In this document: positions 22,037 through 50,910 of the stretch, one piece after another
How the letters are laid out: every line of letters starts with the position of its first letter
Numbering within the stretch: the stretch's first letter is position 1
Source of the DNA: a virus
Virus genome (UHGV): UHGV-1451962
Length of the DNA stretch: 64,000 nt
Reading direction: 5' to 3' (one strand)
Notes under the pieces: generated by a model
Seen by the model: only the letters and a program-made list of their open reading frames with translations
Told to the model about the DNA's origin: nothing
The model's database searches: none
Program-made: the position numbers and the translations under genes

Positions 22037-23566
22037 TTAAAATGCGGAAGGTTCATCTTCCATAATAATTTTTATATCTTCAATAGGAACTAAATCGTAG
22101 TTCCATTTTGTAACAAATTGTGGTTGAATTCTACAAATACCTAAATCAGAAGCACACCATAAATAAACCCCTTTATAAGAACCTCTTCTGTTTTTATAAA
22201 CTGAAATCTTTTTATCAGGAATTTGAAAATTATTTGTAGACAAAATTGGCTTTAATGTTTCTAAATCCTCTTCTGTTACATCCAAAATAATTTCACCTAT
22301 ATCCACCTTATCTGCTAAGCTTTTTGCACCTCTTAGCAAACTTTGGTCAGGAGTATCAGTATTGCGGAAATCACCTGAAAGCTGTGTTGCAGTAATAAGA
22401 AAAATGCCATACTCATTACAAATATCTTTAAGTCTAACGCTTAACATAAAAAGAATATTGTCTTCTCTTAATCTTACTCCACCACTTCGTCTTGTAACTT
22501 CCTCAAGAATCTTCATTGTACTTTGAATGTAGTCGAAACAAACATAAGCTATATCATGTTCTCTGATATTTCTTTTAACAGTATTCTCTACATCCATTAA
22601 AGAATAATCAGGCAATAATTCTACCCAAATAGGTGATTCAGATAAAATCTTTCCTGCTTCAATAACTCGTTCTTCTTCTCCTGCTTTGTATTCACCTCTA
22701 AGAATATGGTCTTCATTTACCGCAGAAAGAAAAGCCAGCATCATAGTTTGAATTTCTTCTTTATCTTGTTCAGTACCAATAAATAAAGTTGGTAAAGAAG
22801 CTCCATTTTTAATCCACATACCAAAATTAGTATCATAAATTTTATTACAAGCAAAATTACAAGCATCTGCAATTAAAGCTCTAGTTTTACCTGCACCAGT
22901 AGCAGCGGATCTAAGATATAATTTTCTAAGTCTTGCACCTCTAGTAACGGTATTAACCAGTCTCCCATAAAGTGGAGCACCAACTTCAGGATTCTTTTTA
23001 AAATTTTCAATTAATTCTAAAATTCCTTCTCCTGCTTGATATCCTCCAATAACATTATTATCAATATATTTGACTTTAATATCATCAATTCGTTTGTCAA
23101 TAATATCAGCTATTTCAATAAGAGAAGTAGAATCCAGCCAGTCTTCTTGCTTTTGTTTCTTTTTTAAATCTAAAATATTATTAGTATCATATAGAAAAGA
23201 AACATCTACTCCAAATTTATCATAAGCTCTTAATAAAGTAAATTTTTTTAATCGACTATAATAATATTTAAAAGTATCTCTAGTGGCTAATTCTGCGGCT
23301 TTAGTTACATACTCTAAACCACCATTTGCTTTAAACACAGCTTCATATTTGGGTCTAACTGCCAAATAATCAACAATAGTATCTAAAGTAATTGCTGATT
23401 TTGCTTCATGTATATTGTACATAGACCCAAAAATAATTTTGTGAACTTCTTCTGTAAAATCTTCTTCAAAAATAGGAAATTCATCAGGTGCATCTAAAAT
23501 TGAATTATCATTAAAAACACAACCAATAACTTGGGCTACTGCCGTTAAATCTATATATTTACTCAT
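22037..23566 (-). CDS. DnaB-like replicative helicase
   Basis: 509 aa with Walker A SAATGAGKT in RecA-like C-terminal half; adjacent to primase. Confidence 0.55.
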   Translation of the reverse strand: MSKYIDLTAVAQVIGCVFNDNSILDAPDEFPIFEEDFTEEVHKIIFGSMYNIHEAKSAITLDTIVDYLAVRPKYEAVFKANGGLEYVTKAAELATRDTFKYYYSRLKKFTLLRAYDKFGVDVSFLYDTNNILDLKKKQKQEDWLDSTSLIEIADIIDKRIDDIKVKYIDNNVIGGYQAGEGILELIENFKKNPEVGAPLYGRLVNTVTRGARLRKLYLRSAATGAGKTRALIADACNFACNKIYDTNFGMWIKNGASLPTLFIGTEQDKEEIQTMMLAFLSAVNEDHILRGEYKAGEEERVIEAGKILSESPIWVELLPDYSLMDVENTVKRNIREHDIAYVCFDYIQSTMKILEEVTRRSGGVRLREDNILFMLSVRLKDICNEYGIFLITATQLSGDFRNTDTPDQSLLRGAKSLADKVDIGEIILDVTEEDLETLKPILSTNNFQIPDKKISVYKNRRGSYKGVYLWCASDLGICRIQPQFVTKWNYDLVPIEDIKIIMEDEPSAF

Positions 23567-24140
23567 TCATATCTTCCTCCAAAAAAGTAAAAAATCTTTT
23601 CCTTTTTCTCATTGGCTCTCTTGTTTTAGGGGGAGTGATATGAATTTCTTCTGTAGGCAGAATAAAATTTTCTATTTCTTTATTTTCATTTCTTTGCTGA
23701 TTTTCCCAAATTGTATAATAATAATTTCTAGCATTTTCATACTGATAAGGGACAATTCCAATTCTGCCTTGAGCCTTTCCTAAATCTCCACCTTTTACTT
23801 CAAAATGATATTTTAAAGTTTTTAAAATACCAGAATAAGTATAATGATTTTCATTTACATAGTCTTTAATTTGTTTATAAACTACTTTAGGAATTATATC
23901 ATAATTAAAAAGTTGTTTAATATATTCTTCTAAAGCAATCCGGTTTTTTTCTTCTTCTGCAATATTTTGACTATATCTTTCATAACATAACTTATGTGCA
24001 TATCTTCTTTTATTAGGAATTGGTATACATTCTTCTTTGTCTCGGTCAAATGTACTTCCGCACACAAAACATTTTACTTTATGTGCAATTTTTATCACTT
24101 CCTTTTTTAATATTATAACATATATTTGAACAAAAGTCAA
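23559..24140 (-). CDS. zinc-finger protein, unknown function (true start uncertain, probably near 24089)
   Basis: CFVCGSTFDRDKEEC...HKLCYERY Cys/His cluster; annotated 5' end overlaps terminator hairpin 24136-24158 and a TATAAT/SD sequence, so the N-terminal ~17 codons are probably not translated. Confidence 0.4.
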   Translation of the reverse strand: MTFVQIYVIILKKEVIKIAHKVKCFVCGSTFDRDKEECIPIPNKRRYAHKLCYERYSQNIAEEEKNRIALEEYIKQLFNYDIIPKVVYKQIKDYVNENHYTYSGILKTLKYHFEVKGGDLGKAQGRIGIVPYQYENARNYYYTIWENQQRNENKEIENFILPTEEIHITPPKTREPMRKRKRFFTFLEEDMNE

Positions 24141-31131: not shown

Positions 31132-33012
31132 TTAATCAAAAGTAAAACCAAGCTCGGTAGCATTTTCATAAATATATTGTTTGCGGGGTTCTACTTTAAC
31201 TCCCATTAAAATTTCAAGTAATTCATCTGCTTTTTCTGCATCACTAATAGTAATTCTTTTATAGCGTTCTTGCTCAAAACAAACTTTCTGAAGATCACGT
31301 GCGTTTAACTCGCCCAAACCTTTCGCTCTCACTAGCTCATAAGTGCCTTGATGCTGAGTTTTCCACTCTTCAAGTTCTTCATCAGTATAAGCATAGTATT
31401 CATTATTCTTCTGACGAATAATGTACAAAGGAGTAACTGCTCTATAAAGTTTTCCTGCTTCGACTAAAGGCCGCATATAAGTAAAAAAGAATGTAGTTAA
31501 AAGTAATTCAATACTAGCTCCATCAGAATCTGCATCCGAAGTAATTACGATTTTATCAAATTGCATTTTATCTACATCAAAAGTTTTATCAAAACCTCCA
31601 CCAATTACTTTAATAATATCAGAAATTTCTTGATTAGCAAGAATTTTTTCAACAGATTGTTTTCTAGGGCTAATAGTTTTACCTTTTAACATATAAATAC
31701 AATCTGTTTTGGGATTCCGTGCTTCAACGGCAGATGATCCTGCGCTTAAACCCTCGACTAGCAGTAGATTACGCTGGCTTGGATTCTTATTTGTGCAATC
31801 AATAAATTTATTACTTAGGGCGATTTTGGCTTTAAGACCAGTTTCTTTTTTACCCTTATCCCTAACAGCTTCTCTAGCTTTTCGAGCTGCTTCTCTAGCT
31901 TTTCGAGCATTGATCGCCTTATCTGCGATTTTCTTTATTTCTTTTTCATTTGCTTCAAACCAATATTGTAATTCTTGTGCAATGATTCCTGCAAAAGGGT
32001 GCATATCAATTTTAACAATTCTACTTTTGGTCTGAGCGTCATAAGCTATACCAGGAGCAGTAATATTAAAAACTAAATATAATCCTTCTTGACAATCATC
32101 GCCAGATAAATTGCTATCCTTTTCTTTCAACCAAGCTTTATCTCTAAAAAACTTATTCATTTCTCTTGTTAGAATAGTTTTAATTTGAGTAATATGCGGG
32201 CCAGTATCAGTAAGTCCTGTATTAACATAAGGAACAATAGTAGAAGAATATTTATCAGTATAAGTTAATACTAAATTTAATTCATTCTTATTATCTTTAA
32301 AATCAATTTTAAGTCTATTTTTAATAATTTCGCTATTTTTATCTACAGTAGAATCAACCAAATCAGTTAATCCATTCTTAGAGAAAAAAGTTTTTTCATT
32401 TAAAGTGATAGTTAAACCTGGACATAAACAAACTAAAACTTCAAAAAGATTATTAATAATTTTTAAATCTACTTCTGGGTGAGTAAAAAATTCTTCACTT
32501 GCTTGCCAAGTAACAACAGTACCGGATTCTTTATCATTTTTTACTTTACCAGTTTTGCGGTTTTTGAAAATTCCTTCTTCAAAAGAAACTTCTTCAAAAT
32601 TTCCTTTTTGATAACTAAGTACCTTTGTCCAATGACTTAAAAATACAACTAGCTTACTGCCGATTCCGTTTAGACCTAACGCGGTACCTTCATAAACACC
32701 ATCTTCAGTATATTTACCAGAAGTGTTAAGCACACTAAAAGCAGCTTCAAGAATTGTTTTTCCGTCTTCTCTAGTGGAATTAATTAAAAAACCTTGCCCA
32801 TTATCTTTAACTGTGATTACATTATTATCTGAAATAGTTACATTAATTTCAGTGCAATGACCTGCTTTAAACTCGTCAACTGCATTAGAAACAATCTCAA
32901 TCAATAGCTGAGTTGAATATTCAGTAGAACCAACATATACTCCAGGTCTAAGTCTTGTAAATTCTAGTGGAGTAAGACTTTGAATTGAATCTTTATTATA
33001 TAAATTATTCAC
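31132..33012 (-). CDS. type II DNA topoisomerase, B (ATPase/TOPRIM) subunit
   Basis: 626 aa; TOPRIM motifs LLLVEGLSAGSSA and VITSDADSDGASI. Confidence 0.8.
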   Translation of the reverse strand: MNNLYNKDSIQSLTPLEFTRLRPGVYVGSTEYSTQLLIEIVSNAVDEFKAGHCTEINVTISDNNVITVKDNGQGFLINSTREDGKTILEAAFSVLNTSGKYTEDGVYEGTALGLNGIGSKLVVFLSHWTKVLSYQKGNFEEVSFEEGIFKNRKTGKVKNDKESGTVVTWQASEEFFTHPEVDLKIINNLFEVLVCLCPGLTITLNEKTFFSKNGLTDLVDSTVDKNSEIIKNRLKIDFKDNKNELNLVLTYTDKYSSTIVPYVNTGLTDTGPHITQIKTILTREMNKFFRDKAWLKEKDSNLSGDDCQEGLYLVFNITAPGIAYDAQTKSRIVKIDMHPFAGIIAQELQYWFEANEKEIKKIADKAINARKAREAARKAREAVRDKGKKETGLKAKIALSNKFIDCTNKNPSQRNLLLVEGLSAGSSAVEARNPKTDCIYMLKGKTISPRKQSVEKILANQEISDIIKVIGGGFDKTFDVDKMQFDKIVITSDADSDGASIELLLTTFFFTYMRPLVEAGKLYRAVTPLYIIRQKNNEYYAYTDEELEEWKTQHQGTYELVRAKGLGELNARDLQKVCFEQERYKRITISDAEKADELLEILMGVKVEPRKQYIYENATELGFTFD

Positions 33013-33499
33013 CCAATACCTCCTTAACAGTCACTCTACCAGTAGCTAAATCATCAGCAAGTTCATTGCCTTCAATACCAGCATGACCTTTAATTTTTCT
33101 TAAATCAATCTTTCTATGCCATTTATTATATATTATATCATAAAATTTTATTAAATCCAAATTTTCAGGAGTTGATTTATCTGCTTTTCGCCAGTTATTA
33201 TTTTTCCACCTGTACATCCAATCATTGAAAGTATTTACACAATATAAAGAATCTGTATAAACAATAGGATAAGTAAAAGAATCTGCCGAAACCCCATAAT
33301 TGTACAAAGCCCAAAGAATAGCTTTCATTTCTTCTCTATTGTTTGTAGTTCCAATAGTTTGACAAGCAAAAGCATCTACTAAATGTAGGTTTTTAGGGTC
33401 TTTAACATACTTATAAACAACTACCCCATAACCACCAGAAGCATCTTTACTACCATTCTTCAAAGTTGAGCCATCAGTATAAATAACAGTACCTATGAT
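33005..33499 (-). CDS. rnhA: ribonuclease H, probably initiating at a non-AUG (AUC/AUA) codon
   Basis: GHAGIEGNELADDLA motif; conserved N-terminal IYTDGS (catalytic Asp) lies upstream of the only ATG/GTG/TTG codon; in-frame ATC/ATA sit 6/9 nt after AAAGGAGAG, preceded by an in-frame TAA. Confidence 0.65.
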   Translation of the reverse strand: MIGTVIYTDGSTLKNGSKDASGGYGVVVYKYVKDPKNLHLVDAFACQTIGTTNNREEMKAILWALYNYGVSADSFTYPIVYTDSLYCVNTFNDWMYRWKNNNWRKADKSTPENLDLIKFYDIIYNKWHRKIDLRKIKGHAGIEGNELADDLATGRVTVKEVLGE

Positions 33500-33616
33500 T
33501 TAACTCTCCTTTCTTTGATTTTCTTAAATAAAAGTAGTATAATATTAATAATAAATCAATCAATCTTTTATTCTTTAATAATATTATATCATTTTTTTAA
33601 AATAAAAACAAATAAA

Positions 33617-33651
33617 GGGTTATAAACTCACCAAAGGTGAGTTTATAACCC
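33617..33651 (-). terminator. rho-independent terminator
   Basis: GGGTTATAAACTCACC-AAA-GGTGAGTTTATAACCC 16-bp stem downstream of holin gene; near-identical copy at 63407-63441. Confidence 0.55.
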
Positions 33652-33660
33652 ATATAATCT

Positions 33661-34002
33661 TCAAATCGGCCCAAAGACGTCCGGTTCATCGGAAGAGGTG
33701 GGCGTTTGTGGCGTCAGATTATTCATCACAGTTTCATATTTTATGCCATTTTTAGTATTCTCACGAGTGGCTTTATTATAATAAAAAGCTTGACTAACTG
33801 CATAAGCAGCCCAAGGTAAACTGGCTTCCGCGGCTAACCAAGGCAAAGAACCAGTAAATCCTTCGTGAATGCAATAAAATGCTAGAATAATATGAGCGAG
33901 AGAATGAACCCATATTAAAGCAGATTCTTGAGCTAAAAGAACTTTTGAAAATTCTTTTTTCTTTTTTCTTTTGTTTCTATTCTTTTTAACGAAGTTTATC
34001 AT
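33661..34002 (-). CDS. putative holin
   Basis: 113 aa, two hydrophobic helices (LIWVHSLAHIILAFYCI, LPWAAYAVSQAFYY); overlaps the end of the endolysin gene. Confidence 0.4.
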   Translation of the reverse strand: MINFVKKNRNKRKKKKEFSKVLLAQESALIWVHSLAHIILAFYCIHEGFTGSLPWLAAEASLPWAAYAVSQAFYYNKATRENTKNGIKYETVMNNLTPQTPTSSDEPDVFGPI

Positions 34003-34783
34003 ATAATCTCTTCATTATAGTGACGCCTTCTAGTCTGGTTAAAAACTTATTAGGCATTAATTTGCCAGTTTCGTCACCTTTAATTAGTCCCATAGAAACT
34101 GCCCAATTTAATTCATCTTTGCCCCAATCAGCATTTTGTTTAGCTAATTGAACTAAATAATTATTCATCATTTCATTAAATTTTTCTTGAGTCATGTCTT
34201 CATCCTCCTCTTGTTTAATTGTAGGTTTATTATTATTATTTGTTTTAGGTTTTTCAATTATAAAATAATATTTTACTTGTTGTTTGAAAAGACTATAATT
34301 ACCTCTAGTGCGTGCGGTTTTTGTGCTGTTAGGGTCATTAATATAAATAGTGTTTCCTTGAATATTCCACACTAAAATGAAATGACCACTACTTGTCCAT
34401 AATCCTTTGCCCATACAAGCTATAACTAAATTACCTTTATCAATTTCAGCTTTTGCTAAATTATGATATTTACTAGAACTATTACCATAAATATTTGCAC
34501 CATTCAGCATATAGGCTGTTAAACCGTATCGTGCAGCAGCAGGTTTAAAATATCCATAATAAGTTCCTTGGTGAGGAGCTTTATAACCATGCGCTAAAGC
34601 CCAGGCACATTCAGTTTTTGGAGTAACTTTTTTATCTGCCCATGTAGCTAAAACCATAGACATTGCGGTGGGACCGCAGCCAGAAGCGCCGATTGTAGTT
34701 GATTCACCTTTTGCTGAATAGCTAATATTTTTCCATCTTGCGTCTGTTTGTAAATAAGATACAGGCTGTGTATTCATATACAT
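33986..34783 (-). CDS. endolysin: papain-like (C39-type) cysteine peptidase with C-terminal SLH-like cell-wall-binding domain
   Basis: Q...GASGCGPTAMSMVLA Cys motif; C-terminal NWAVSMGLIKGD...LMPNKFLTRLEGVTIMKRL resembles SLH repeat. Confidence 0.5.
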   Translation of the reverse strand: MYMNTQPVSYLQTDARWKNISYSAKGESTTIGASGCGPTAMSMVLATWADKKVTPKTECAWALAHGYKAPHQGTYYGYFKPAAARYGLTAYMLNGANIYGNSSSKYHNLAKAEIDKGNLVIACMGKGLWTSSGHFILVWNIQGNTIYINDPNSTKTARTRGNYSLFKQQVKYYFIIEKPKTNNNNKPTIKQEEDEDMTQEKFNEMMNNYLVQLAKQNADWGKDELNWAVSMGLIKGDETGKLMPNKFLTRLEGVTIMKRLYDKLR

Positions 34784-34851: not shown

Positions 34852-35280
34852 TTAAATTAATTCTGCGAGTTCTGCTATTTTAGATCTATGGATATTATTT
34901 AAAGTTACTTCTCCATAAATATCAGAACCTCTAAAAATTTTAGACATTCTTCTCATGCCATTGTTATTACCAGAATAAGCTAATGAGTCAACTTGCGTTT
35001 TAGCATCACCATCAATAATACAAATACAATCTTCACCAATACGTTGAAGAGCTAATTTAATTAAAGTTCTGTCTAAATTTTGTGCTTCTGTTATATAAAT
35101 ACCTGCGTTCATTCCGCTAGTATCATAACCTCTAATATCGCTAAAAGGCAATAAAACTAATTTATCTTCTTCCATCATACGAAGAACACCTTCTTTACCG
35201 CCCAATTTGGCGGAAAGCATATTACCAATTTGTGAGTCAAGTAATTTATCGTCTTTTGTACCTGGGTAAACATTAAACAT
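34852..35280 (-). CDS. phoH: PhoH2-like ATPase, 3' exon (C-terminal part)
   Basis: PhoH C-terminal motifs LPFSDIRGYD, ITEAQNL, IIDGDAKTQVDS; continues the P-loop domain that ends at 36547; exact splice junction not determined. Confidence 0.55.
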   Translation of the reverse strand: MFNVYPGTKDDKLLDSQIGNMLSAKLGGKEGVLRMMEEDKLVLLPFSDIRGYDTSGMNAGIYITEAQNLDRTLIKLALQRIGEDCICIIDGDAKTQVDSLAYSGNNNGMRRMSKIFRGSDIYGEVTLNNIHRSKIAELAELI

Positions 35281-36546
35281 TATAGCTTTCGCTATAAACC
35301 TGACTATATCTTATTTCAAACTATTTTTTAAACTAATATATTTATCATATTTTCTTTTTAAAAATCTTGGATTATTATCATAAAGAGTATTTAAAATATT
35401 TAATACTTGTATTCTACCTCTCCATTGTGTATGCCACGCGGTAGTATAAAAATTTTTGTTTTTTTTATCTGATTGTATTAGAAGGTTTATTATATTTTGA
35501 AAATCTTCAACTTCTGTCTCACAATAAGCTGTATAACTTAATGTTACATCTGTGCTAAAATTTTTACTATATGAAAGACCGCCATCACCATCAAATAAAC
35601 CTAAAGCATAAGCTGATAAATATTCTTTAGGGATTTTTTCATAAGGAATATGTGTTATTTTATAAGTTTTATTTGGCACTATATTATATTTTGCTAAGTC
35701 ATTATAAATTTGTTCATCTACAAATTCAACTGAACAACAAGTGCTATTTGGACGAATATCATAGATAATTTTACTATCTATTTGAATATCATTTTTAAAT
35801 TTTTCAAGAAGTTCTATATCTTGTTCTTGAATTTGTAATCTAATTCGCCCAGTTTTTCGATAATGGTCTACACTTCCATCTGTAAATAAAAATCCTAGCC
35901 AATATGCTTTAATAGGAGAGTCGATAATTGAAAAATAATCACTTTTAATTCTCCTATTAATTTTATTTGTATTTGTAACTTTGATATTTAATTCTTTTAA
36001 CCTTTTCTTCGTTGTTTCAACATCCAAATTACAATATTTAGCAATTTCTTTAAGAAAAGCTCCTTCTTTAATCATTTTTTTAATAGTAATAATTTGTTCA
36101 TCAGATAAATTTTTCTTTTTTCTTCCACCTCTTATTACAACATTATTATCTGTAAGAAGTTTTGTTAAATTACGTCTATTATAAGAAGGATATTTTAAAA
36201 GTAATTTAGTTATTGACTGACCTTCTAAATACTCTTGTACAATTTGTTTTTCCATAAACTATCTCCTTTATTTTAATATTATATATTATTTTTATTAAAG
36301 ATAGTTTTTCTTTGTTTGTCCAAAATTTTTCAGTTTGAAATCCATGCGCTTCGGAATTTTACTTCCTACTCTACTCCCTTACTATAGTTTCGATAGTCGA
36401 TGAGCCTTCCTCTATTCGAGGCTTGGTTGCTGATTGTCCAATCTATATTATTTTTAAACGTTCACGCTTAGATTTATTTCATTCTTACGTTGTAGTTAAT
36501 ATAGCTCTAAGGATGTTCCAGCAGTTCACATGGTTTTACTTGAGCC
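35281..36546 (-). mobile_element. group I intron (ORF-containing) interrupting PhoH2-like gene
   Basis: About 1.27 kb separates the two PhoH halves; 290-nt GC-elevated non-coding segment (36256-36546) with stem-loops, plus a free-standing LAGLIDADG ORF; GNRA hairpin TATAGC-GAAA-GCTATA just before exon 2. Confidence 0.55.
35311..36255 (-). CDS. LAGLIDADG homing endonuclease (intron-encoded)
   Basis: Two LAGLIDADG motifs (AYWLGFLFTDGS, AYALGLFDGDGG); own RBS AAGGAGA; 314 aa. Confidence 0.8.
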   Translation of the reverse strand: MEKQIVQEYLEGQSITKLLLKYPSYNRRNLTKLLTDNNVVIRGGRKKKNLSDEQIITIKKMIKEGAFLKEIAKYCNLDVETTKKRLKELNIKVTNTNKINRRIKSDYFSIIDSPIKAYWLGFLFTDGSVDHYRKTGRIRLQIQEQDIELLEKFKNDIQIDSKIIYDIRPNSTCCSVEFVDEQIYNDLAKYNIVPNKTYKITHIPYEKIPKEYLSAYALGLFDGDGGLSYSKNFSTDVTLSYTAYCETEVEDFQNIINLLIQSDKKNKNFYTTAWHTQWRGRIQVLNILNTLYDNNPRFLKRKYDKYISLKNSLK

Positions 36547-37416
36547 TTACCCTATTTTAATTAACCCAAGTCTTGCGGAATTAATAGTTGCCACTGTATT
36601 ACAAAAGATTATAATTTTATCTATTCTATTTTTTTCTAACATATACATTAAAAAAGCTAGAGAAATGTAAGATTTTCCTACTCCTGCTGGGCCTTGTAAC
36701 AAAGTAATTTTATTATTAGCTAAACTATCAAAAGCACATTTTTGATATATGTCTCCTTGATATGGTTGTACTTTTCCAAACCAGGTAGAATCAAAAGTAG
36801 GAAATTTTAAGTAACGATAAGTTTCTCCTGACCAAACCCGCACATCTATAAGTTCATCAAAATTATCAGGATTTTTTAAAAGTAGATATTCTCCTTTTTT
36901 AAGATTAAAATGATTATAGTTAGGATTTTCATAAAATTTAGAAATTAATTCTTCACTAGCAGTAATTTCTGCAATTCCACTATAAGTATCTAAATCTTCC
37001 TCAATAGAAGAAACATTTTCTTTGGGAAACAAACATAAAGCAATATGTTTTAAACTTAAATCATTAGTTATAAATTCTAAACATTTATTTGTTTCAAACT
37101 CATTCCAAGCATCAGACAAAATTCTAGCATCATCATTAATATCAAAATTCATTTTATCTAAAATGTATTCATAATTTATTTGATGAATTTTAACAGAATA
37201 ATTATTTGGATATTTTTCAAATAAATGAAGCAAAAGTCTTGCGGAATATTTTATATCAGAATCTTTATTTGCCGCAGTTTTAATTCTTTCTAATTCTTTT
37301 AAAGTAATAGAAGAAATGATAAATTTCTCATCATCTTCAAAAGCTGATTCTCCGGCTAATAAAAGACTACAAGTATCGTAGAATTTAATAATAATTTCCA
37401 CTCTCCTATTGTTCAA
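36547..37416 (-). CDS. phoH: PhoH2-like protein, 5' exon (PIN-like N-terminal domain plus Walker A of PhoH domain)
   Basis: N-terminal PIN-like region (YDTCSLLL); C-terminal LLQGPAGVGKSYISLAF P-loop; ORF ends ~6 codons past the point where PhoH homology stops. Confidence 0.55.
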   Translation of the reverse strand: MNNRRVEIIIKFYDTCSLLLAGESAFEDDEKFIISSITLKELERIKTAANKDSDIKYSARLLLHLFEKYPNNYSVKIHQINYEYILDKMNFDINDDARILSDAWNEFETNKCLEFITNDLSLKHIALCLFPKENVSSIEEDLDTYSGIAEITASEELISKFYENPNYNHFNLKKGEYLLLKNPDNFDELIDVRVWSGETYRYLKFPTFDSTWFGKVQPYQGDIYQKCAFDSLANNKITLLQGPAGVGKSYISLAFLMYMLEKNRIDKIIIFCNTVATINSARLGLIKIG

Positions 37417-39795: not shown

Positions 39796-40508
39796 TAAAT
39801 AGAAAAGATATGTTCATCAAAAGTATTTAAATCAAAAAGAATAATTTGTTTACTCCAATGAGTATCTAAATCAAGATTAACCTTTTGATTATTATTATAC
39901 CAACAAGCTCCACCTTCATATTTAGGAGGATTGCGAAATTCTCCTATATCTTCTATCATTAGAGGAATTGGGGTATGGCCATGAACAATTAATTCATTTG
40001 GATTAATTAAACATCTAAATTTATAATGTAATCTATTCCAAAGAAAATCAAATTCATCACCAGAAATATTATTAGGAGAAAAACCTGCATGACTTAAATG
40101 AATTTTAATTCCATTTTTATTAGTGTATTGTTCATAAACTGGAAGTTTATTAATTACATTTAAATACTCAATAGCATTTTTTTCTTTAGACCAATCTAAT
40201 AAAGTAGATAAACCTCCATTGTTCATATGAAGATAAATATCATCTCCATATAAACATTTTTCATTTTTTAGAAATTCTCTTCCAGAATTTACTAACATTT
40301 GTTCATGGTTTCCTTTAAGAAGGATAAATCTATCATCTTTTAAAATTTCTTTAAGGATTTTCCAACCTTCTGTCCCTCTGTCAATTACATCACCCAACAC
40401 AAATACTTTATCTTCTGCTTGAATGAAATTTTTAATCTGCTTAAACAAATTTGAATTGCCATGAAGGTCAGTAAAACAATAAACTTTACCCTTATTCATA
40501 AACATCAA
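39795..40508 (-). CDS. metallophosphoesterase (PPP/ApaH-like phosphatase)
   Basis: Motifs DLHGN, GDVIDRG, GNHE; 237 aa. Confidence 0.7.
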   Translation of the reverse strand: MMFMNKGKVYCFTDLHGNSNLFKQIKNFIQAEDKVFVLGDVIDRGTEGWKILKEILKDDRFILLKGNHEQMLVNSGREFLKNEKCLYGDDIYLHMNNGGLSTLLDWSKEKNAIEYLNVINKLPVYEQYTNKNGIKIHLSHAGFSPNNISGDEFDFLWNRLHYKFRCLINPNELIVHGHTPIPLMIEDIGEFRNPPKYEGGACWYNNNQKVNLDLDTHWSKQIILFDLNTFDEHIFSI

Positions 40509-40524
40509 TTCCTTTCTTAATTTC

Positions 40525-40560
40525 TATATATATTATATAATATTTTTTTAAAAAAATAAA
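40525..40560 (-). promoter_or_regulatory. promoter-leader cassette (TATAAT -10 plus conserved AGAAA(G/T)TAAG..AGG leader)
   Basis: Minus-strand TATAAT at 40532-40537, about 25 nt upstream of start codon; same cassette recurs at many minus-strand gene starts. Confidence 0.4.
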
Positions 40561-40562
40561 TT

Positions 40563-40591
40563 AAGGGCAAAAGATCTTAATCTTTGCCCTT
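40563..40591 (-). terminator. rho-independent terminator
   Basis: AAGGGCAAA...TTTGCCCTT stem downstream of gene 40599-40817. Confidence 0.55.
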
Positions 40592-43848: not shown

Positions 43849-43927
43849 AAAACTTCAACCTCTTTCTTATTTATTTATTCCTTAACTTTCTATATATATT
43901 ATATAATATTTTTTTAAAAAAATAAAT

Positions 43928-43957
43928 TAAGGACAAAACTTTTAAAAGTTTTGTCCT
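43928..43957 (-). terminator. rho-independent terminator
   Basis: AAGGACAAAACTTTT-AAA-AGTTTTGTCCTT stem downstream of gene 43980-44498. Confidence 0.55.
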
Positions 43958-46824: not shown

Positions 46825-46874
46825 TTCCTTTCTTAATTTCTATATATTATATAATAATTTTTTAAAAAAATAAA

Positions 46875-46897
46875 AAGGGAGTCAAAATGACTCCCTT
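46875..46897 (-). terminator. rho-independent terminator
   Basis: AAGGGAGTC-AAAA-TGACTCCCTT stem downstream of gene 46902-47963. Confidence 0.55.
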
Positions 46898-46901
46898 AAA
46901 A

Positions 46902-49598: not shown

Positions 49599-49682
49599 TG
49601 GTACCAGAAGCGGGACTCGAACCCGCACGCATAAAGCGAAAGTTTTTGAGACTTCTTTGTCTACCAATTCCAACATTCTGGC
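49599..49682 (-). tRNA. tRNA-Leu (anticodon CAA)
   Basis: Cloverleaf by eye: acceptor GCCAGAA/TTCTGGT, anticodon loop CTCAAAA, long variable arm, T-loop TTCGAGT, encoded CCA. Confidence 0.8.
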
Positions 49683-50059
49683 AAATAAGGTTTTCCCTTG
49701 TAAGGAGGATAACCTAAAACCCAAGCTAGCTTTAGTCCTTTTTTAATCAGAGGTTGACCATTCTCATTAGCATTTCTCAGAAGCCTTGATTTTCTACTTC
49801 TCGTAGTAGAAGGAGTGGAGATGAGTAATGCTCCGCCGTCTCTCCTATATAACACCTTGCATTTTAATGACGCAAAGAAACATTTTACTATGCGGCTATC
49901 AACCTGTTTACCCATAGCTAACGACTTAGGTCGCCCTTATGTCTGGTCACGCAGTATCGTCGCTTCAACAGTTGCCAGACTAATTCTCCCGATACCCGGA
50001 TACCCAGTTCAGCATTATCTGGGGTACTCATTTATTTTACGTCTGTATGATAAGACTAA
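49683..50059 (-). ncRNA. candidate structured non-coding RNA (unassigned 377-nt GC-elevated spacer in tRNA island)
   Basis: No tRNA fold found; GC clearly above flanks; only low-plausibility ORFs that overlap tRNAs; next to TROVE/vWA gene. Confidence 0.25.
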
Positions 50060-50135
50060 TGGTGGCTCGCCTGGGATTTGAACCCAGCACATCTTGCTTA
50101 AAAGGCAAGTGTTCTACCTAATGAACTAGCGAACC
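50060..50135 (-). tRNA. tRNA-Lys (anticodon TTT)
   Basis: Acceptor GGTTCGC/GCGAGCC, anticodon loop CTTTTAA, T-arm CTGGG-TTCAAAT-CCCAG, encoded CCA. Confidence 0.85.
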
Positions 50136-50137
50136 AT

Positions 50138-50213
50138 TGGAGCTAGCGAAAAGACTTGAACTTTTAACCTGCGGTTTACAAGGCCGCTGCACTACCTATT
50201 GTGCTACACTAGC
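50138..50213 (-). tRNA. tRNA-Thr (anticodon TGT)
   Basis: Acceptor GCTAGTG/CGCTAGC, anticodon loop CTTGTAA, T-loop TTCAAGT, encoded CCA; 2-nt gap to tRNA-Lys. Confidence 0.75.
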
Positions 50214-50273
50214 AAATACAAGATACTTTTTTTTGATTAAAAGTCAAAAAATAAATTGCTATGAGTATCTTTA

Positions 50274-50347
50274 TGGAGCAAGTAACGGGAATCAAACCCG
50301 CATCGCTGGAGTGGAAGTCCAGAGTTCTATCATTAAACTATACCTGC
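50274..50347 (-). tRNA. tRNA-Gly (anticodon TCC)
   Basis: Acceptor GCAGGTA/TACTTGC, anticodon stem-loop CTGGA-CTTCCAC-TCCAG, T-loop TTTGATT, encoded CCA. Confidence 0.75.
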
Positions 50348-50408
50348 TTATTGTTGATAGTTTTAGTAAAAACAGTATCACCACGTGAAGGTAACTATCT
50401 TGATACCG

Positions 50409-50497
50409 CGGGGCAAACTGGATTTGAACCAGTGAAACTATTGCTAGTTTGCTTGTTTTCAAGACAAGTGCAATAAGCCAAACTCTGCCATTGCCCC
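50409..50497 (-). tRNA. tRNA-Ser (anticodon TGA)
   Basis: Acceptor GGGGCAA/TTGCCCC, anticodon loop CTTGAAA, long variable arm, T-arm ACTGG-TTCAAAT-CCAGT; CCA not encoded. Confidence 0.8.
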
Positions 50498-50682
50498 ATA
50501 TTAAGGAAGGTGGAGGTAGGGCCTCACCTATAGCTGCTCCTCAATTATTCCCCTACTTTTCTGACTCTACACCCGCAGGCACGATACGTATTATACATCC
50601 GTTCAAAGTTTATTGTCATGTCAGCAAGACAAGATGCCTTTCACATCAGCTATTTCCTTTTGTTATCTATTATAATTCTGCT

Positions 50683-50759
50683 TGGTACGCCTGAAGGGAC
50701 TCGAACCCCTGGCTTACTGCTTAGAAGACAGTTACTCTATCCAGTTGAGTTACAGACGC
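50683..50759 (-). tRNA. tRNA-Arg (anticodon TCT)
   Basis: Acceptor GCGTCTG/CAGGCGT, D-arm ACTC-AACTGGATA-GAGT, anticodon loop CTTCTAA, T-loop TTCGAGT, encoded CCA. Confidence 0.85.
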
Positions 50760-50824
50760 GTATCAGTAAACTCAAGTTTATTGTTATCTTTAAAACTAAT
50801 AGTAAAGAGTATCAATTTTAAAGA

Positions 50825-50910
50825 TGGTGTGGGCGATGGGACTCGAACCCACAAGCTAGATTAGCAGCGCATTTTAAGTGCGATATGTTTTCCTATTTCA
50901 TCACGCCCAC
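50825..50910 (-). tRNA. tRNA-Leu (anticodon TAA)
   Basis: Acceptor GTGGGCG/CGCCCAC, anticodon loop CTTAAAA, long variable arm, T-arm GTGGG-TTCGAGT-CCCAT, encoded CCA. Confidence 0.8.

Follow-up and report, generated by a model that had tools for sequence, protein, structure and literature searches.

The RNase HI gene of an SPbeta-like gut phage is very probably translated from a near-cognate AUH codon (likeliest AUA, possibly AUC) that lies behind a strong Shine-Dalgarno (SD) sequence, an arrangement that would act as a built-in translational attenuation. The gene is found in the stretch of 64,000 nucleotides from the virus genome UHGV-1451962 that was analysed here (the window). The phage is ~137 kb, encodes a DnaB that is 37% identical to SPbeta YorI, and carries YorF- and YorH-family genes. 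Initiation of its RNase H gene at AUC or AUA, and not at AUG, GUG or UUG, had been suggested by a sequence-only reading of the window, and is supported by the conservation of the site, by purifying selection on the codons that follow, by the rank of the SD and by a rival TTG that lacks an SD.

The gene is encoded on the minus strand (the sequence-only reading had left the strand unstated), where it reads AAAGAAAGGAGAGT TAA ATC ATA GGT ACT GTT ATT TAT ACT GAT GGC TCA ACT TTG. In a longer read, AATCAAAGAAAGGAGAGT stands directly 5′ of TAA ATC ATA, and AAG directly 3′ of the TTG. The TAA (33502-33500) opens a stop-to-stop frame of 164 codons (33005-33499) and is adjoined by the two candidate non-canonical starts, ATC (33499-33497) and ATA (33496-33494), neither of which varies among the window and 13 contigs of relatives. 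From the favoured ATA, the predicted coding sequence spans 33005-33496 (163 codons plus stop), or 164 codons if it begins with ATC 33499; its assignment draws on the Pfam match, the alignment with E. coli RNase HI and dN/dS. From the upstream stop to the catalytic Asp, this frame has no ATG, GTG or TTG codon. The GAT codon of the first catalytic Asp (33473-33475, minus strand), part of the IYTDGS motif, thus lies 5′ of every canonical start, the first of which in frame is the TTG at 33461-33463. Both points had been made from the letters of the window, namely that the N-terminus with the catalytic Asp precedes the first canonical codon and that a start at the TTG would delete this residue, and both are borne out by the read and by the alignment of IYTDGS on E. 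coli IFTDGS. The description of this TTG as annotated does not apply to the window, which carries no annotation, but it does fit public gene calls, which begin at the TTG (152 aa) or further 3′.

Upstream of the gene, a predicted intrinsic-terminator hairpin with a 16-bp stem and a T-run (33617-33651, minus strand) closes the lysis module, so that a new transcription unit begins with RNase H. The lysis module comprises a 113-aa ORF (33661-34002) and a Peptidase_C39_2/SLH lysin. In the lysin (33986-34783, minus strand), a Peptidase_C39_2 domain is joined to an S-layer-homology (SLH) domain, which suggests a Firmicute host with an S-layer. A promoter-like TTGATT-16-TATACT, recognized by its match to the consensus, occupies 33536-33563 (minus strand), and a second extended -10, TGATATAAT, was picked out by eye at 33591-33583. 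A 4-nt duplication that is private to the window lies inside the putative -35 region (33556-33563, minus strand), with TTGATTGATT where the relatives read TTGATT. At the other end of the gene, the RNase H stop codon and the GTG at which gyrB begins (33012) overlap in the directly read sequence GTGAATAA (33005-33012, minus strand), and gyrA comes next, which points to co-transcription of RNase H with gyrB and gyrA in a replication operon.

The frame is predicted to encode a complete, ordinary type 1 RNase H with a full catalytic complement. Residues 4-153 match the Pfam RNase_H profile (PF00075; positions 4-137 of 141) with 92.5 bits against a cut-off of 25.8 and an E-value of 3.5e-26. Alignment with E. 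coli RNase HI pairs IYTDGS with IFTDGS, TTNNREEM with TTNNRMEL, VYTDS with LSTDS and NELADDLA with NERCDELA, so that the motifs of all four catalytic carboxylates are present (Asp10, Glu48, Asp70 and Asp134 in E. coli RNase HI numbering). The domain and its Asp/Glu/Asp/Asp motifs are those of the type 1 RNases H of large phages. No closer relative with more than 47% identity was found among GenBank phages and IMG/VR. In a collection of 5.8 billion proteins, the nearest three homologues (92-99% identity) are all short calls of 139, 127 and 107 aa, while homologues that share 50-63% identity have the full length and start M-x-x-I-Y-T-D-G. Among the best 120 homologues, the catalytic Asp is missing only in the three representatives of this clade. 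Relatives outside the clade have an ordinary ATG start, unlike the RNase H of the window. One of them, L018, is 58% identical and syntenic, with RNase H beside gyrB and gyrA as in the window. In L018 (3830-4003), the RNase H ATG shares bases with the TGA that ends an upstream ORF of ~58 codons (ATGA), which suggests translational coupling rather than a weak-start design; a 98-aa ORF is located between RNase H and gyrB in this relative.

The ATC-ATA pair is common to the window and the 13 relatives' contigs, which come from independent samples, runs and assemblers and represent nine distinct gene sequences in four lineages. After a TAA or TGA, all 13 contigs read ATC ATA GGT ACT ATT ATT TAY ACT GAT. 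In L011, the upstream TAA has become AAA, which lengthens the frame by eight codons with no start gained. No canonical start 5′ of the catalytic Asp was found in the four lineages, in 14 sequences or in 35 clustered gene calls. Taken alone, the fact that the third bases of ATC and ATA do not vary over only four lineages would be weak evidence. Across the four lineages, the whole gene shows a dN/dS of 0.07-0.13 at a dS of 0.2-0.37, and all 164 codons are intact in nine of nine distinct sequences. The 57 codons 5′ of the first ATG show a dN/dS of 0.05-0.16, compared with 0.03-0.12 for the remainder, and the 12 codons before the TTG differ by three synonymous changes (four when the TTG/TTA codon is counted) and one conservative Val/Ile change. 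The same purifying selection upstream as downstream implies that the N-terminal region is translated in this frame and functionally constrained.

The SD preceding the two candidate starts, AGAAAGGAG (33506-33514, minus strand), pairs without mismatch over 9 nt with a Firmicute-type 16S 3′ end. Its duplex energy of -13.7 kcal/mol ranks fifth among 77 genes, in a comparison that was biased against RNase H, as every other gene was given its best canonical candidate. The relatives carry either the same AGAAAGGAG or AGAAGGGAG, which contains one G-U wobble. The sequence-only reading had located a strong SD 6 nt before ATC and 9 nt before ATA; these distances hold when counted from the end of GGAG (33506), but become 4 and 7 when counted from the end of AAAGGAGAG. 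No Rfam leader was found at the RNase H start, as Rfam gave only tRNA matches, and the start region, taken as 96 nt, is no more stably folded than shuffled sequence (z = +0.88), meaning that it is unstructured.

Between the two codons, the spacing favours ATA. Aligned spacing from the SD is 5 for ATC and 8 for ATA, and among those ATG-started genes of the phage that have a clear SD, spacings of 5, 6, 7, 8 and 9 nt are found in 2, 12, 7, 6 and 4 genes, respectively. ATA is therefore the likelier start, as its spacing of 8 falls within the preferred range of 6-8, with ATC at a still acceptable 5. This accords with ribosomes of the S. aureus type, which prefer spacings 2-3 nt longer than those of E. 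coli and choose the optimally spaced of two competing starts (PMC13009471). The index of the catalytic Asp would be 7 from ATA, as in 7 of the 120 homologues, and 8 from ATC, as in 2 of them (the mode is 5-6). On this basis, ATA is probably the start, ATC is a possible but distinctly less probable one, and use of both codons, or of another one, appears unlikely. The N-terminal peptide expected from initiation at ATA or ATC is MGTVIYTDGSTLK or MIGTVIYTDGSTLK. Homologues of ~60% identity have an N-terminus of the form 'MI...', which could equally mean that ATC-ATA is descended from ATG-ATH, with ATC derived from an ancestral ATG. A search for an intermediate lineage or prophage that would reveal the ancestral codon or the host returned none, with genome contigs reaching at most 41% identity and metagenome contigs at most 52%.

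In the mechanism that we propose, the strong, unstructured 9-nt SD would hold the 30S subunit at AUA or AUC, where the initiator fMet-tRNA would pair with only two of the three codon bases, so that fMet is presumably the first residue. Such two-base pairing is disfavoured by IF3, which should make initiation inefficient. The strong SD would offset the slow codon recognition and fix the reading frame. As a result, little full-length RNase H would be made, while the co-transcribed gyrase genes would use their own efficient GTG and ATG starts. A low dosage of RNase H may be what selection maintains, one possibility being that it spares RNA primers or R-loops. It is also conceivable, though we consider it unlikely, that the phage uses start-codon fidelity as a coordinated switch, by which this gene and the others with such starts discussed below would be near-silent until infection lowers initiation stringency. 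Triggers of such a switch could be a lower IF3-to-ribosome ratio, a change in ppGpp or nutrients, or some phage factor.

The best-surviving alternative on the position of the start, itself very unlikely, is initiation at the sixth codon, ATT (33484-33482), giving a protein that starts M-Y-T-D-G-S. AUU is the best-documented non-canonical start in bacteria, the homologue P0031 has been called as MYTDGS, and a weak AGGT is located 7 nt upstream. However, the SD available to this codon amounts to only -3.8 kcal/mol (rank 70 of 77), with the strong SD 20 nt off. Starting here would also lose most of the first beta-strand, which is kept in 96 of the 120 homologues (Asp index 5-6), and the codons before the ATT have undergone only synonymous or conservative changes.

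Translation from a downstream canonical codon (the TTG at 33463 in the window, or a GTG, TTG or ATG further 3′ in relatives), yielding a truncated protein without the first Asp, is what gene callers have assumed. Their products of 70-152 aa include the GenBank entry DAQ93863.1, which is the 107-aa call of this RNase H. The 35 clustered homologues (three 90% clusters, >70 contigs) have been called at 70, 81, 107, 125, 127, 139 or 152 aa, and never at 163-164 aa. The called position thus differs among lineages, giving seven lengths. No SD precedes the TTG (-2.4 kcal/mol, rank 73 of 77), and most relatives (L005-L017) have TTA at this codon, so that gene callers picked differing, arbitrary downstream starts. 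The resulting products would all lack Asp10, and the 107-aa form Glu48 as well, whereas the codons 5′ of the canonical starts are under the strong purifying selection described above (dN/dS 0.05-0.16). A genuine start within the downstream part of the gene is therefore highly improbable. Because standard gene callers accept only ATG, GTG and TTG, every public copy of this RNase H is called too short, with one or two catalytic residues missing.

Recoding is scarcely credible, whether by a canonical start in another frame followed by a frameshift or by a special phage initiator tRNA that reads AUA or AUC. The window does hold a TTG-initiated ORF in another frame that crosses the SD, but this TTG arises from the window-private 4-nt duplication, and the ORF that it creates is seen in no relative. 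Moreover, the ten-contig group of L005 has no ATG, GTG or TTG in either other frame 5′ of the Asp. As for the tRNAs, the phage encodes 17, including tRNA-Ile(UAU) and a tRNA(CAU), but both of these have a paired 1:72 position and are without the three G:C anticodon-stem pairs of bacterial initiators. A frameshift from an upstream ORF was also considered and rejected, because a three-frame comparison over the lineages gave no conserved alternative-frame ORF with a canonical start.

A decaying pseudogene after loss of an ATG (a common first step of decay) or a sequencing or assembly artefact, of the kind that metagenome assemblies do carry and that the sequence-only reading had raised, has a next to negligible chance of being correct, as the site is identical in the independent assemblies of 13 relatives' contigs, with no ATG and no frameshift, the 164 codons are intact in nine sequences, dN/dS stays at ~0.1 at dS up to 0.37, and the SD is conserved. 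Initiation at AUA or AUC behind the strong SD is thus the reading that we retain for RNase H.

A second gene of the window shows a comparable arrangement. The sequence-only reading had proposed that a zinc-finger gene, noted at 23559-24140, might start at an ATT behind an SD. This proposal gained support: the YorH-family zinc-finger gene is predicted to span 23559-24089 on the minus strand (176 codons), starting at ATT 24089-24087, and initiation at AUU 24089 is supported by both its homologues and its SD. The minus strand reads TTGACTTTTGTTCAAATATATGTTATAATATTAAAAAAGGAAGTGATAAAA and then ATT GCA CAT AAA GTA AAA TGT TTT GTG TGC. Homologues with 45-56% identity start M-A-H-K-V-K-C, M-P-H-Y-V-K-C or M-G-H-K-V-K-C, placing their Met on the Ile of I-A-H-K-V-K-C in the window, and the ATT is kept in L020-L022. 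The extended SD, AAAGGAAGTGAT (24094-24105, minus strand), matches the anti-SD at 11 of 12 positions, the best among the matches listed by the scan, with an aligned spacing of 8 to the ATT and a duplex energy of -12.9 kcal/mol (rank 8 of 77). Upstream of it lies TTGACT-17-TATAAT (24112-24140, minus strand), which has an extended-10 TG and, at 11 of 12, is the best promoter match in the area. The canonical codons nearby fit poorly with a role as starts. An in-frame GTG (24098) sits inside the SD and lacks a usable one for itself (rank 71 of 77), and TTG 24140, the start chosen by gene callers, is part of the -35 hexamer and also falls in the 3′ arm of a 17-bp hairpin. This TTG is disconnected from the zinc-finger gene in L021 and L022 (98% identical) by one inserted nucleotide and an in-frame TAA. 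The putative family membership comes from a precomputed match to PF26927 (SPbeta YorH family) for the identical 193-aa protein and at least 90 homologues; our own hmmscan against the copy of Pfam used here gave no match.

Further candidates were sought by scanning both strands of the 64-kb window for ATT, ATC, ATA or CTG codons that begin an ORF of 60 or more codons and follow an SD whose duplex energy is -11 kcal/mol or lower. Fifteen codons passed, nine of which adjoin a properly spaced canonical start. The other six fall into three loci: the two RNase H codons, the ATT of the YorH-family gene and three consecutive ATT codons (37395-37387) at the head of a PIN/PhoH gene. The arrangement at RNase H is hence no product of chance. 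At the zinc-finger and PIN/PhoH loci, the sole nearby canonical codon is a GTG within the SD itself.

The PIN/PhoH gene reads AGGAG-AGTGGAA-ATT ATT ATT AAA TTC TAC GAT, and its candidate start is the first ATT (37393-37395, minus strand), 7 nt after AGGAG (37407-37403), with an SD of -11.1 kcal/mol. The orthologous site of L015 (260-345) reads AGGAG-AGTGAAA-ATG ATT TAT AAA TTT TAT GAT and has an ATG exactly at the position of the first ATT. The PIN_4 match sets in at residue 7 of the protein counted from ATT 37395. Two codons 5′ of the ATT there is an in-frame GTG, which lies inside the SD, 1 nt after GGAG, and is a poor, formal alternative start. Judging from this comparison, the gene probably starts at AUU 37395. 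The PhoH-like gene is split in the window, with PIN and the N-terminal part of PhoH at 36547-37395 and the C-terminal part at 34852-35280 (both minus strand), by a 314-aa LAGLIDADG/HTH ORF (35311-36255, minus strand). It is intact, at 418 aa, in L005-L011, and the insertion is shared by L012 and L013. In L015 and L016, gyrB is interrupted by GIY-YIG ORFs. The PhoH and gyrB interruptions resemble insertions of mobile homing endonucleases or introns that differ from strain to strain.

Taken together, a weak AUH start combined with a strong SD at the RNase H, YorH-like and probably PIN/PhoH genes looks like a recurring expression strategy of the replication module. The candidates amount to 3 of ~78 genes in the window (~4%), all in the replication/nucleotide-metabolism module and at least two behind a promoter of their own. 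Genomes of E. coli and S. aureus are known to have a few such starts each, far below this apparent share.

The closest parallels are found in S. aureus, where infC (AUA), ccpN (AUA), cvfC1 (AUU) and citZ (AUA) combine a conserved non-canonical start with an extended SD (PMC13009471). Start-site profiling and reporters showed that these AUH starts give ~10% of the output of AUG, with values of up to 30% in certain media (PMC13009471). As in the phage, the setting is of the Firmicute type, with conserved AUH codons, strong SDs and Firmicute-type spacing, and cvfC1 is a small zinc-finger protein, like the product of the YorH-like gene. There are differences as well: the S. aureus cases are cellular and were established by ribosome profiling and reporters, whereas the phage cases are known here from sequence alone. 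In addition, the extension of the RNase H SD lies at the 5′ side, whereas the S. aureus study stresses start-proximal extension, and AUC, one of the phage RNase H candidates, is absent from the S. aureus cases.

In E. coli, infC and pcnB (AUU) likewise have a near-cognate AUH codon that limits expression, with the same expected two-of-three pairing opposed by IF3. However, infC is autoregulatory, its product being IF3, while the phage RNase H gives no sign of feedback, and the host lineage and SD rules differ from those of the phage. AUA, AUC and AUU initiate at ~1-2% of AUG in E. coli, and an AUC-initiated product was shown to carry an N-terminal Met (10.1101/063800). Such very low efficiencies would count against initiation of RNase H at AUH. 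Non-AUG starts are also described as sensitive to IF3, ppGpp and nutrient state (PMC5499595). The Firmicute gene ebpA of E. faecalis shows the same pattern as the phage genes, with an annotated ATG 3′ of the true, attenuating ATT; unlike them, it is a cellular pilus gene and was tested experimentally (PMC4447247).

Among phages, a search of the open-access literature for AUH starts found no phage-specific study. An internal AUU start is a feature of gene 26 of phage T4. As far as can be judged from sequence comparison, the start arrangement belongs to the near-cognate class of infC, pcnB, ccpN, cvfC1 and ebpA and involves no new mechanism. What would be new is the phage setting, the possible use of AUC, the presence of three such genes in 64 kb, and the ATG/ATT swap between sister lineages. 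Attenuation by a weak AUH start and a very strong SD, demonstrated in S. aureus, would thereby extend to a widespread lineage of human-gut phages. The YorH-like and PhoH genes, like RNase H, would have been given wrong N-termini by gene callers. The practical worth lies mainly in better annotation and in a convenient test case, as the ATG/ATT swap and the several AUH genes in one genome could serve to examine the evolution of near-cognate starts and their expression cost.

Some further features of the window deserve mention. Its 17 tRNA genes form two arrays (49599-50910 and 58135-60251, minus strand), and the tRNA-Ile(UAU) among them reads AUA. The tRNA at 58844-58919 has an 8-nt anticodon loop ('tgaa') according to ARAGORN, yet reaches an Rfam tRNA score of 48 bits. 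Rfam reported neither tRNA-Met(CAU) (58948-59020) nor tRNA-Ser(GCU) (58632-58725) at the gathering score. A 65-nt AT-rich intergenic cassette that includes a TATAAT-like box and a run of A/T is present in three copies, at 40521-40585, 43887-43951 and 46835-46899, with 65-89% identity, and the genes starting at 40499 and 46815 share an identical 22-nt ribosome-binding region, ATTAAGAAAGGAATTGATGTTT. The cassettes and this shared region are probably repeated promoter/RBS modules.
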